Shown here: one piece after another, positions 34,331 through 35,892 of the stretch | Layout of the letters: every line of letters begins with the position of its first letter | Numbering within the stretch: the first letter of the stretch is position 1 | DNA from: a virus | Taxonomy: Duplodnaviria > Heunggongvirae > Uroviricota > Caudoviricetes | DNA: 64,000 nucleotides | Virus record (IMG/VR): IMGVR_UViG_3300028805_000039 | Coordinates: 127,852 to 191,851 of that record | Reading direction: 5' to 3' (one strand) | Position numbers and translations under genes: made by a program | The notes under the pieces: generated by a model | What the model saw: the letters and a program-made list of their open reading frames with translations, nothing else | What the model was told of the DNA's origin: nothing | Databases searched by the model: none

Positions 34331-34650
34331 TGGATCAAACTATTTTTCGTGAAATGTGCGAATTAATTGAAGACATTATGGACTTAGAAGACAACGCTCC
34401 TGATGTTCATAATGATCATCTTTGTGCCCATGAAGCATGGACCCTTCTTCATAAAATGATTGAAAAAAAATGTAAAGAGATTTATGAAAATTATACTGAT
34501 ATTACTGAAAAAGTGCATAATTGTGTAAATGGCGTTATGAAATGCGGTTCTGTCTGGGATCCTAAGCTTGATGAAGTTTTTGATTCTTATAATGACATTT
34601 ATGATTTCTTTTTTATATGCGATATGGAGAGAAATCATGGAGACAAATAA
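34321..34650 (+). CDS. Cys-containing hypothetical protein
   Basis: inside track ORF 34312..34650. Confidence 0.5.
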   Translation, partial: GSIMDQTIFREMCELIEDIMDLEDNAPDVHNDHLCAHEAWTLLHKMIEKKCKEIYENYTDITEKVHNCVNGVMKCGSVWDPKLDEVFDSYNDIYDFFFICDMERNHGDK

Positions 34651-34876
34651 ACTTTATGCTTATCATTGTCAAGATAGTTATTTTGATTGGGTAAAATATT
34701 TATCATTTGATAAAGAATTGCTTCAAGAGTTAATTATGGATGACTATTTTGAGGAAGCGTTTAATTGTTTTTGTTTAAATTGTTGGGAAGAACCAAAAAA
34801 TTTTTGGAAGCATGAAAAAGAAAATTCATATTTAACAAAACGCTATATTATAGAGGAGAAAAAATATGTCAAATAA
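34638..34876 (+). CDS. LLQEI-family small protein (member 1 of the tandem array)
   Basis: METNKLYAYHC...KELLQELIMDDYFEEAF. Confidence 0.5.
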
Positions 34877-35147
34877 TAAACTTTATGGATATTTTGTTGA
34901 TAATGTACTCAAAAAAGTATCTTCTAGTAAGGAATTGCTTCAAGAAATTTTAATGGATGACTATTATGAAGATGCTTTTTATTTATATTATGTAGAAAGA
35001 CGTTCTCGTGATGTTATTGAACGATTTGAAACTCTTACGCCTTATAAATTTTGGCACGAAATAAAAAAGAAAAATACTAATAAATTCAATATGTATTATT
35101 TTCCTTCTCGATTCATTAAAGATTTGGAGGAATACCGTGTAGAATAA
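34866..35147 (+). CDS. LLQEI-family small protein (member 2)
   Basis: MSNNKLYGYFVD...KELLQEILMDDYYEDAF. Confidence 0.55.
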   Translation: MSNNKLYGYFVDNVLKKVSSSKELLQEILMDDYYEDAFYLYYVERRSRDVIERFETLTPYKFWHEIKKKNTNKFNMYYFPSRFIKDLEEYRVE

Positions 35148-35397
35148 GTTATATGGTTATTATATTGGAGATAATCTTAAATATATTTCTCCTGATAAAG
35201 ATTTGCTTCAAGAAATTTTAGTAGATGATTATTTTAATTTTGCTTATTATACTTATAATCTTCATTGCCACGCCGCAAATACACGATATAGATTTCGTCC
35301 AAAAGATGCTATTTCTTTTTGGAAAGCAGAAAAAAAATATCCTTTTTTAAGTGAACAATATATTATAGATTTAGGAAATTATTATATTGAATAATTA
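35137..35397 (+). CDS. LLQEI-family small protein (member 3); apparent GTG start followed by a TAG codon
   Basis: ggagg then 6 nt then GTG-TAG-AAT-AAG-TTA-TAT (V-x-NKLYGYYIGD...DLLQEILVDDYF); no in-frame ATG upstream. Confidence 0.35.
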
Positions 35398-35408
35398 AAG
35401 GAGAAAAT

Positions 35409-35660
35409 ATGTATATTCTTTTAGTTAATGATAAAATTACTTATGCTTCAGATAATAAAGAATTACTTCAAGAGATAGTAATGGATAGTTATTTTGATAC
35501 AGAATACGAACAATGGTTAATTTATTGTTTTTCCTTACCATTTAATTTGCCATCCTTAACTAAATATTATACTCCACAAGAATGGTGGAAAAAATTTGCG
35601 GCTCCTATGGCAACTTCTGCTTATGAAATTATAAATTTGGAGGATTATTATATTGAATAA
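35409..35660 (+). CDS. LLQEI-family small protein (member 4)
   Basis: ...KELLQEIVMDSYFDTEYEQW. Confidence 0.55.
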   Translation: MYILLVNDKITYASDNKELLQEIVMDSYFDTEYEQWLIYCFSLPFNLPSLTKYYTPQEWWKKFAAPMATSAYEIINLEDYYIE

Positions 35661-35892
35661 TATTTATATTTTATATAAACTAGAAAAACGAGCAGAAACG
35701 ACTGATACTCTTCTATATTATGCTAGTTATGATAAAGGATTACTGGAAGAAATTCTTTTATCTATTTGGGAAGAGGCAAAATATTTAATTTGGAATTATC
35801 CTGATAATCCTACTGATGCTCAATGGAGGAGAGATAGTTTAGATTCTTATATTGAGCAGTTTGGAATCACTAGCGTTCCTGAGATAAGATAA
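35653..35892 (+). CDS. LLQEI-family small protein (member 5, divergent)
   Basis: ...KGLLEEILLSIWEEAKY. Confidence 0.5.
   Translation: MNNIYILYKLEKRAETTDTLLYYASYDKGLLEEILLSIWEEAKYLIWNYPDNPTDAQWRRDSLDSYIEQFGITSVPEIR

Follow-up and report, generated by a model that had tools for sequence, protein, structure and literature searches.

Large phages often carry small uncharacterized genes in tandem arrays. The array lying between positions 34637 and 35892 of the window analysed here (the whole 64,000-nucleotide stretch of a Caudoviricetes genome, record IMGVR_UViG_3300028805_000039) raises the question of whether its five head-to-tail units are true genes, how old the family that they form may be and which role their products could play. 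A first-pass annotation of this DNA had described five consecutive genes of ~80 amino acids together with two relatives at 43696 and 45530. This description holds, since all seven genes (g1 to g7) lie on the + strand and their coordinates proved to be exact or at most one base off.

Gene organization of the array and its dispersed relatives

The array opens with g1 (34637-34876, 79 aa; E = 3e-23 against the family profile), whose ATG is located one base upstream of the start at 34638 proposed earlier and is preceded at a distance of 5 nt by the SD sequence GGAGAG. This gene overlaps by 14 nt with the upstream gene and by 11 nt with g2 (34866-35147, 93 aa, E = 2e-28), which initiates at an ATG behind the SD sequence GAGGAG. 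The exact g1 protein is present in a public collection, on a contig of 239,565 bp, and the database protein P0005 is identical to g2. The third copy, g3 (35137-35394, 85 codons), starts at a GTG placed 6 nt after the SD sequence GGAGG and carries a TAG as its second codon (35140-35142). After a gap of 14 nt it is followed by g4 (35409-35660, 83 aa), with an ATG and the SD sequence AAAGGAG. The last copy, g5 (35653-35892, 79 aa), overlaps g4 by 8 nt and begins at a TTG located 9 nt after GGAGG. All five array genes end in TAA. Packing is tight, as the codons for LE[ED]Y in one copy harbour the SD of the copy that follows and the overlaps span 8-14 nt; through these overlaps the translation of adjacent copies would be coupled.

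Genes that abut or overlap in this way, and that have in common the C-terminal motif LE[ED]YY[IV]E, could also be taken for repeats of one larger protein whose frame is broken up by sequencing errors or programmed frameshifting. This reading is refuted by the sequence and its probability is negligible. Adjacent copies are in different frames, and therefore the array is not one split protein; each copy is separately initiated, with its own SD and start at the proper spacing, and has its own TAA. The junctions of the array are identical between independent assemblies, and relatives hold different subsets in which each copy is still a complete gene. In addition, the 65 representative clusters of the family, drawn from 1.84 billion proteins, consist without exception of single-unit, stand-alone small proteins from metagenomic relatives. 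Accordingly, the initial proposal of a tandem family of independent genes is borne out.

Two further members are located downstream of the array. The first, g6 (43696-43947, + strand, E = 4e-20), encodes 83 aa from TTG 43696 or 81 aa from ATG 43702; the latter codon is the start in its database orthologues (P0004, P0011 and P0031), and the 81-aa form is found in the public collection. It lies within an operon whose promoter-like site is at 41942-41970. The second, g7 (45530-45784, + strand, 84 aa, E = 1e-26), comes second in a unit of two genes behind the promoter repeat at 45211-45240, with the following promoter repeat at 45797. Altogether, the seven genes range from 79 to 93 codons. The small genes directly 5' of g6 and g7 (43491-43709 and 45259-45537) were considered as distant members and rejected, with hhalign probabilities below 1%.

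Family profile, predicted fold and distribution

A profile HMM built from 94 members recovers the seven copies with E values from 2e-17 to 2e-28, and its comparison with the six-frame translations of the 64-kb window revealed no additional copies. The N-terminal motif originally proposed, K[ED]LLQEIxMDDYF, describes g1-g4 once written as K[ED]LLQEIxMD[DS]YF and does not extend to g5-g7, in which degenerate versions are present (KGLLEEILLSIWE, YNYAQEILMDEYM and KSLLEEIMCDEFM). Among the 94 members, a Tyr of strand 1, a Ser preceding the helix and a Glu within the helix are invariant. The earlier claim that the N-terminus is conserved while the C-termini diverge is corroborated by the mean pairwise identity between paralogs, which drops from 38% in the part that ends with the motif to 19% in the part that follows it. 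Clustering divides the family into 103 groups at 90% identity and into 65 at 50%, with lengths of 46-134 aa and no extra domains. Its products, of ~80 residues, are rich in aromatic side chains and for the most part acidic (pI 4.0-6.6). AlphaFold2 gave confident models for g4 (mean pLDDT 82.5) and g7 (pLDDT 89.9, pTM 0.79), in which the predicted beta-beta-alpha-alpha-beta fold starts with a beta-hairpin, continues with a long helix and then another one, and finishes with a closing strand. Comparison of the family models with PDB and BFVD returned no significant structural match.

Searches with Pfam, PHROGs and PADLOC on the seven genes and the 94 aligned members produced only scattered sub-threshold matches, none with E < 0.003 and none common to more than four members, and the profile found nothing below E = 0.7 among all PDB sequences. 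The 50,697 GenBank phage records contained no match, either by megablast with the 14 kb that surround the array or by tblastn of g2 and g7, and a scan of IMG/VR with the family gave one contig. The names of the homologues are solely "hypothetical protein", plus one implausible automatic aminotransferase-like label. The search of phage databases with a profile HMM, suggested in the first-pass annotation, thus supports the coherence of the family and places no relatives among GenBank phages, Pfam or PHROGs. The family is previously undescribed and restricted to one clade of uncultivated phages with genomes of ~240 kb, for which contigs of 239,565 and 241,302 bp exist, and in which TAG encodes an amino acid. 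As a well-delimited and modelled orphan family (~65 clusters at 50% identity), it adds to the small accessory proteins of large gut/rumen-type phages. Contig names such as 'STEW19' and JGI identifiers would point to a ruminant gut as the habitat, for which the literature on the sample accessions gave no confirmation. A match to a GTDB genome, in a Terriglobales MAG, covered 28 residues at chance level and was discarded.

TAG as a sense codon and the third gene

In this phage TAG encodes an amino acid, most likely glutamine. The frames 38638-39564, 39637-41277, 41985-42788 and 30779-33226 contain two, three, six and one TAG codons, respectively, and appear in relatives as single gene calls of 308, 515, 263 and 815 aa, also respectively; the homology detected by tblastn continues through the in-frame TAGs on both sides. 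Opposite the TAGs that lie in real genes of the window, Gln is the commonest sense residue (7 of ~16), with Trp, Glu and Ile also seen, all of them in small counts. At the same codon in the orthologues of one paralog, the Gln codons CAA/CAG and TAG interchange; moreover, the ATG-TAG-ACG of g1 in the related locus L008 corresponds to ATG-CAR-ACG in g2 of L016, and the gene-caller of the source rendered ATG-TAG as M-Q. In the array region TAG is present in about one-third of the genes, which are mixed among TAG-free genes. The recoding call is based on homology because raw ORF-length statistics did not discriminate between code 11, TAG-sense and TGA-sense.

Code 15 is established in phages (PMC9523058, PMC13037316), and among the jumbo phages with alternative codes that have been screened, ~61% have a suppressor tRNA (PMC13037316). 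In a comparison that concerns the phage genome and not the small-protein family, the phage resembles code 15 gut phages (Peters et al. 2022, PMC9523058; PMC13037316) in its in-frame TAGs in conserved genes, in Gln as their commonest equivalent, in its large genome and in its many tRNA genes. It differs from them in that neither a CTA-anticodon tRNA (0 of the 29 tRNA genes of the window, which covers about one quarter of the ~240-kb genome, and 0 in 13 related loci) nor a release-factor gene turned up in the 64 kb, and in that genes with and without TAG are intermingled behind promoters of the early type. According to the published model, TAG decoding takes place late in infection, which fits poorly with an early expression of this region.

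The consequences of recoding are manifested in g3. Its start at GTG 35137 had been correctly assigned, whereas the TAG at codon 2 and the recoding of the phage were absent from the first-pass annotation. Due to this TAG, ORF calling under table 11 gives g3 only as a truncated 63-aa ORF from TTG 35203, a codon without an SD that sits inside the conserved motif. The exact g3 protein is absent from a collection of 15 billion proteins and has never been called by any public pipeline. These observations, together with the lack of a CTA-anticodon tRNA in the window, would suit a recently inactivated pseudogene with a nonsense mutation at codon 2, in an array that is decaying. Such a reading is largely refuted and must be regarded as very improbable, given that many conserved genes of the phage and its relatives read through TAG and that Gln codons take the place of TAG in the orthologues of a paralog, as described above. 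Furthermore, the GTG-TAG start is also present in the diverged relatives L015, L016 and L020 (dS 0.19-0.37), and in these lineages g3 retains an intact 85-codon frame under purifying selection, at a dN/dS of 0.15-0.25; with this base composition, a frame of 83 codons would stay open by chance with a probability of ~0.008. Because the phage decodes TAG as an amino acid, g3 is not taken as a pseudogene. Its synthesis would require TAG decoding and would consequently depend on the recoding machinery. The gene constitutes a clean example of how standard-code annotation conceals genes in TAG-recoded phages.

Evolution, operon context and putative role

Each paralog of the window has its own orthologue group, and the paralogs are ancient, stable lineages rather than recent diversifying duplicates. 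In relatives the array occupies the same genomic spot with two to five copies, g1, g2, g3, g4 and an extra paralog, g8, being variably present (g1-g3-g5-g8, g1-g5-g8, g2-g3-g5, g2-g3-g4-g5, g3-g4-g5, g3-g5 and g2-g5' in related contigs). In every array with a sequenced end g5 is the last or second-last copy, and both g5 and g7 are almost universal among relatives. A more distant phage has three detectable members with the same flanking genes.

Selection on the family is purifying. By orthologue group, dN/dS (Nei-Gojobori) ranges from 0.08 to 0.41 and is always below 1, with values of 0.13 for g5 and 0.08 for g7, a range similar to that of neighbouring unrelated genes (0.11-0.53). For the family genes these estimates were taken from orthologue groups, as tblastn-based values were contaminated by paralog matches and were set aside. 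The calculation of dN/dS among the copies themselves, proposed in the first-pass annotation, was carried out and is uninformative because the synonymous sites of the paralogs are saturated (pS 0.42-0.63). The N-terminal half is tighter than the C-terminal half in six of the seven orthologue groups, with g4 as the exception, and C-terminal halves are also the faster ones between paralogs; the fastest parts are the C-halves of g1 and g2, with dN/dS of 0.58-0.71 and the maximum in g1. The description of the array as diversifying, understood as positive selection, is therefore not supported by any orthologue group, and the finding of no gene-wide positive selection weakens the arms-race reading.

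At the transcriptional level, a sigma-70-type promoter-like element (33274-33303, + strand; TTGAAA-17 nt-TATAAT) is located upstream of the genes of the array. It is an exact copy of TTGAAAATTTTAAAAAAATATTATATAATA, scores 11/12 in a promoter scan and would function as a promoter. The window contains 16 copies of the 30-nt promoter-like repeat, each of them on the + strand, versus 0 expected by chance; repeat families D1-D4 were recognized, and the repeat is conserved in related contigs. The use of SD sites and of promoters of the TTGACA/TATAAT type would fit a Bacillota-like host. At the other end, an intrinsic-terminator-like hairpin (36262-36297, + strand), with a 16-pair stem followed by a T run, marks the end of the operon, and the next promoter repeat is at 36303. 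The array thus lies within a 10-gene operon (33322-36263) flanked by a near-consensus promoter-like site and a terminator-like hairpin, and host RNA polymerase would co-transcribe it as part of this unit. This architecture suggests that the array belongs to the early, pre-structural programme of the phage. It is important to remark that what speaks for an early timing of the array is promoter resemblance only. Guilt by association is uninformative, since the ~20 neighbouring genes are nearly all unknowns in Pfam and PHROGs.

The locus is a real array of an orphan family, of a kind that is ordinary among the accessory genes of phages, with no sign of an unprecedented mechanism. Large lytic phages group small early genes for host takeover or accessory functions into blocks, such as the SPO1 module and the early genes of T4 and T5 behind strong host-type promoters. 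Like these blocks, the region has its numerous short genes on a single strand, strong promoter-like elements of the sigma-70 type that recur, small acidic products devoid of enzymatic domains, and a gene content that varies among relatives. Unlike them, a single family is amplified here in tandem, sequence and fold homology to them is lacking and the early timing is inferred. The explanation that we tentatively favour, with slightly less than even confidence, is that of an ancient paralog array in an early operon that encodes putative small binders, most likely of host partners; a putative early accessory role in host binding is plausible. The proteins would act as small stoichiometric binders, in which the constrained N-terminal beta-beta-alpha part would serve as a common scaffold or a common contact and the faster-evolving C-terminal helix, strand and loop would set partner specificity. 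The partners would most likely be host proteins, in host takeover or counter-defence, the phage's own proteins being less likely candidates.

Nevertheless, g5 and g7 are near-universal and strongly constrained, and in this they resemble core functions more than dispensable counter-defence, which stands against the favoured explanation. Their presence in nearly all relatives at such low dN/dS would be expected if the family served the phage's own programme, its members being adaptors, chaperones or regulators of replication, transcription or assembly that share the work, with array variation reflecting redundancy. The syntenic position conserved even in distant relatives and a dN/dS that equals that of neighbouring genes also point in this direction. 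We consider such an internal role possible but rather unlikely, because close relatives have freely gained or lost each of the genes g1, g2, g3, g4 and g8, a behaviour unusual for essential internal functions, because the annotation of the neighbours places no structural or replication genes next to the array, and because the proteins have no nucleic-acid-binding motif.

Regarding the favoured host-binding role, the initial view that arrays of this kind are typical of anti-defence or host-takeover families is backed by neither sequence nor fold similarity to a known protein of this type and stands on analogy; an anti-defence role has no direct support. The analogy is with loci for anti-CRISPR proteins and Ocr/ArdA-type DNA mimics, which share with the array small acidic stand-alone proteins, an accessory distribution and orphan families. 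Unlike them, the array family has no match by sequence (Pfam, PHROGs) or by fold (PDB, BFVD), there is no Aca-like regulator beside the array, no positive selection was detected and two members are core-like. Arrays of immunity genes for polymorphic toxins are also composed of head-to-tail divergent paralogs, of ~80-150 residues and in variable copy number, but here the context is that of a phage and no toxin or secretion-related domain is found in the operon or its neighbourhood. In a more elaborate version, which we regard as a long shot, the proteins would be new modular binders for counter-defence or host takeover, with a fixed beta-beta-alpha scaffold and a variable C-terminal module, whose copies would be swapped in a recombination-prone array while the TAG at codon 2 (in g3, and in g1 of other lineages) would gate their synthesis until TAG is decoded. 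If this were true, such a gate would provide temporal control inside a single operon. The series of presence and absence of paralogs in close relatives constitutes a natural design for asking which copies matter on which hosts.

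Anatomy and extent of the family

The window (35% G+C, 29 tRNA genes) matches no GenBank phage at the nucleotide level, and nearly all its genes are short and lie on the + strand. Five family genes are arranged head-to-tail on this strand between 34637 and 35892, namely g1 (34637-34876, ATG start), g2 (34866-35147, ATG), g3 (35137-35394, GTG), g4 (35409-35660, ATG) and g5 (35653-35892, TTG), and two further members, g6 (43696-43947, +) and g7 (45530-45784, +), are found outside the array. The five tandem genes and two dispersed relatives reported in the first-pass annotation are therefore present with corrected coordinates; g1, a real gene, had been placed at 34638, one base off its true ATG at 34637. 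Every copy displays a Shine-Dalgarno sequence 5-9 nt upstream of its start and ends in TAA. Neighbouring array copies overlap by 8-14 nt, except for a 14-nt gap between g3 and g4, and the reading frame changes from one copy to the next. These individual signals and successive frames identify independent genes, and the reading of the array as one split protein was rejected. The GGAGG of g3 and g5 is made up of Leu-Glu-Glu/Asp codons within the C-terminal motif of the preceding copy, [DN]LE[ED]Y[YR][IV]E, and this motif is degenerate in g3 (DLGNYYIE), where g4 does not overlap. Consequently, the apparent protein conservation at the C-termini is probably in part a nucleotide constraint.

A profile of the seven copies retrieved 103 clusters at 90% identity from 5.8 billion proteins, and 1.84 billion representatives searched exhaustively with an HMM gave 65 clusters at 50% identity. 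The matches all come from metagenomes, on contigs of up to ~240-250 kb; each is a stand-alone protein of 46-134 residues, with no Pfam domain and no credible name. IMG/VR holds one contig with the family; no credible match was obtained in GTDB genomes and none among GenBank phages. Searches of Pfam, PHROGs, PADLOC and PDB sequences were likewise empty, whether run with individual members or with the whole set of 94 aligned members of the family profile. The orphan family is new; the kind of family is familiar. AlphaFold2 models built from family alignments were confident for both g4 (pLDDT 82.5, pTM 0.65) and g7 (pLDDT 89.9, pTM 0.79), and predict a beta-hairpin followed by a long helix, a variable-length loop, a second helix and a closing strand. 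The conserved motif S-x-D-K-x-L-L-[QE]-E-[IL]-x-x-D-x-[FY] lies in the long helix, and the second helix has a near-invariant Trp. Most of the proteins are acidic (pI 4.0-5.0; about 6-6.6 in g2 and g3); they contain 15-22% Phe+Trp+Tyr and show no conserved pattern of Cys or His.

TAG as a sense codon and the reading of g3

Under table 11, g3 reads GTG-TAG and the ORF listing yields only a 63-aa remnant starting within the conserved motif. TAG also occurs in frame in four conserved genes that are called as single genes in related contigs: 38638-39564 (two TAGs; 308 residues), 39637-41277 (three; 515), 41985-42788 (six; 263) and 30779-33226 (one; 815). Sense reading is exemplified by the TAGs at 38776-38778, 38836-38838 and 35140-35142. 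Tblastn alignments to diverged relatives span the window TAGs uninterrupted, Gln being the commonest sense residue facing them. The g1 orthologue of related contig L008 starts ATG-TAG-ACG and the deposited protein P0022 starts M-Q-T, and the L016 g2 orthologue has a true Gln codon at the matching position. On these alignments, TAG in the window phage is most likely a sense codon for Gln (code 15), a recoding established in gut phages (PMC9523058); TAG recoding in phages has also been surveyed (PMC13037316). No CTA-anticodon tRNA was found among the 29 window tRNA genes, the window being about a quarter of a ~240-kb genome, or in 13 related loci.

Given this reading of TAG, g3 is intact. Its GTG-TAG start is common to L015, L016 and L020, and its 85-codon frame is open in these and in the window, with dS of 0.19-0.37 between the window and these contigs and among them, and dN/dS of 0.15-0.25; the chance of so long an open frame at this base composition is ~0.008. 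The TAG occupies the position of the TTG start codon of g3 in L017, L021-23, L025 and L026, and the start is an ordinary ATG in L007/8, L027 and L028. In the window lineage, two g2-synonymous changes (CGA-GTT to CGT-GTA) both converted TTG to TAG and produced a GTG one codon upstream. A pseudogene was rejected on the TAGs in conserved genes, the homology across them, the Gln correspondence in L008 and L016, the shared start with its purifying dN/dS, and the start codons that other relatives have at or near this position. A 15-billion-protein public collection lacks the exact g3 protein but has its six paralogs, all on one 239,565-bp contig; g3 was thus missed by every pipeline. A GTG start with an immediate recoded TAG appears to defeat gene callers even where other calls read through TAG. 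More generally, table 11 splits or misses many window genes that the gene calls of relatives join.

Promoter-like repeats and putative operon context

A 30-nt element, TTGAAAATTTTAAAAAAATATTATATAATA, consists of near-consensus -35 and -10 boxes with a 17-nt spacer. The window has 16 copies against 0 expected, all on the + strand (starts at 6411, 17165, 26345, 28816, 33274, 36303, 41398, 44518, 45211, 45797, 46247, 47934, 50023, 54495, 54826 and 60824), and the likeness between copies reaches ~80 nt. The element is kept in relatives, also directly downstream of their arrays, and probably defines early transcription units of the phage clade. One copy (33274-33303, +) precedes the putative array operon, ten closely spaced genes (33322-36263, +) followed by a hairpin of 16 bp with a T tract (36262-36297, +), after which the copy at 36303 starts. 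The copy at 45211-45240 precedes a two-gene unit with g7 in second place, and the g6 unit sits behind a TTGACA-17-TAAAAT site (41942-41970). In T4, T5 and SPO1, early regions are marked by short operons of small genes and tRNAs under recurring promoters of host type, and by likeness to these phages the array region would be early. The genes adjoining the array are almost all unknowns, so that genomic context offers no functional handle.

A second small paralog family (111-122 aa, pattern MS..A..GYG[FY]...DS[ED]), with no Pfam or PHROGs match, supplies the first and last genes of the array operon (33322-33663 and 35928-36263, +) and one gene of the operon holding g6 (42785-43153, +).

Paralog evolution and possible role

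Related phages have a separate orthologue group for each window paralog, so the duplications predate the phage clade. Synonymous sites are saturated between paralogs, which share 38% amino-acid identity in their N-terminal and 19% in their C-terminal parts, in agreement with the initial description of conserved N-termini and diverging C-termini. Copy content at the array locus is fluid. The order g1-g2-g3-g4-g5 is that of the window and near-identical strains; related contigs carry g1-g3-g5-g8 (L007/8; g8 being an extra paralog), g1-g5-g8 (L011-13), g2-g3-g4-g5 (L021-23, L025), g2-g3-g5 (L016, L026), g3-g4-g5 (L028, 241 kb), g3-g5 (L027) or g2-g5' (L009/10). In a more distant phage, three members are detectable at the matching spot, the last one g5-like, with a cREC_REC-like gene on one side of them and a conserved gene of ~245 aa on the other. 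g5 and g7 behave as near-core, and g1, g2, g3, g4 and g8 as accessory.

Nei-Gojobori dN/dS in the orthologue groups was 0.41 (g1), 0.40 (g2), 0.23 (g3), 0.31 (g4), 0.13 (g5), 0.08 (g7) and 0.20 (g8), values similar to those of unrelated neighbour genes (0.11-0.53). The N-half is tighter than the C-half in all groups except g4, as in g1 (0.22 vs 0.71), g2 (0.26 vs 0.58) and g7 (0.07 vs 0.28). These half-gene and whole-gene values indicate that the C-terminus evolves faster and that constraint on g1 and g2 is relaxed; positive selection was not demonstrated for whole genes or halves, 0.71 being the highest half. The family is thus real, independently translated, ancient and selectively maintained. 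Its members, small acidic alpha/beta proteins, form a tandem array whose copy number varies, in a large phage that has recoded TAG. Of the original interpretation, the tandem, variable multigene family stands; diversifying selection and an anti-defence role were not shown, the latter label being an analogy.

Tentatively, the proteins may be expressed early and act as stoichiometric binders, in which the N-terminal half would be a common scaffold and the C-terminal half would specify the partner, most likely a host protein. The near-universality and tight constraint of g5 and g7 speak for the main rival, a role within the phage's own programme, which is considered less likely.

Two genes upstream of the array, a 93-aa ORF (34049-34330, +) weakly matches Pfam cREC_REC (cyclic-phosphate processing receiver domain; E = 0.0016). 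The match is stronger in the orthologues of relatives, and throughout the clade the gene precedes the array at a distance of a few genes. The ORF at 30779-33226 (+; 815 codons, one in-frame TAG) matches eukaryotic-type major vault protein domains (MVP_shoulder, E = 6.7e-19; Vault_3, E = 1.3e-8), unusual for a phage, and is conserved in relatives (815-aa call in L001). The few annotatable window genes (13016-14128, 16368-17129, 22404-23108 and 62828-63697, +) encode a PcfJ-like protein (E = 1.2e-19), two exonuclease-like paralogs (assigned to phrog_20187 and to a DNA polymerase exonuclease subunit PHROG) and a protein of the radical SAM type. Finally, a dense block at 47588-62803 (+) contains 25 tRNA genes, with the promoter-like repeat and small ORFs between them, and its ARAGORN anticodons include the unusual Cys-ACA, Ile-TAT, Thr-AGT and Ser-AGA.
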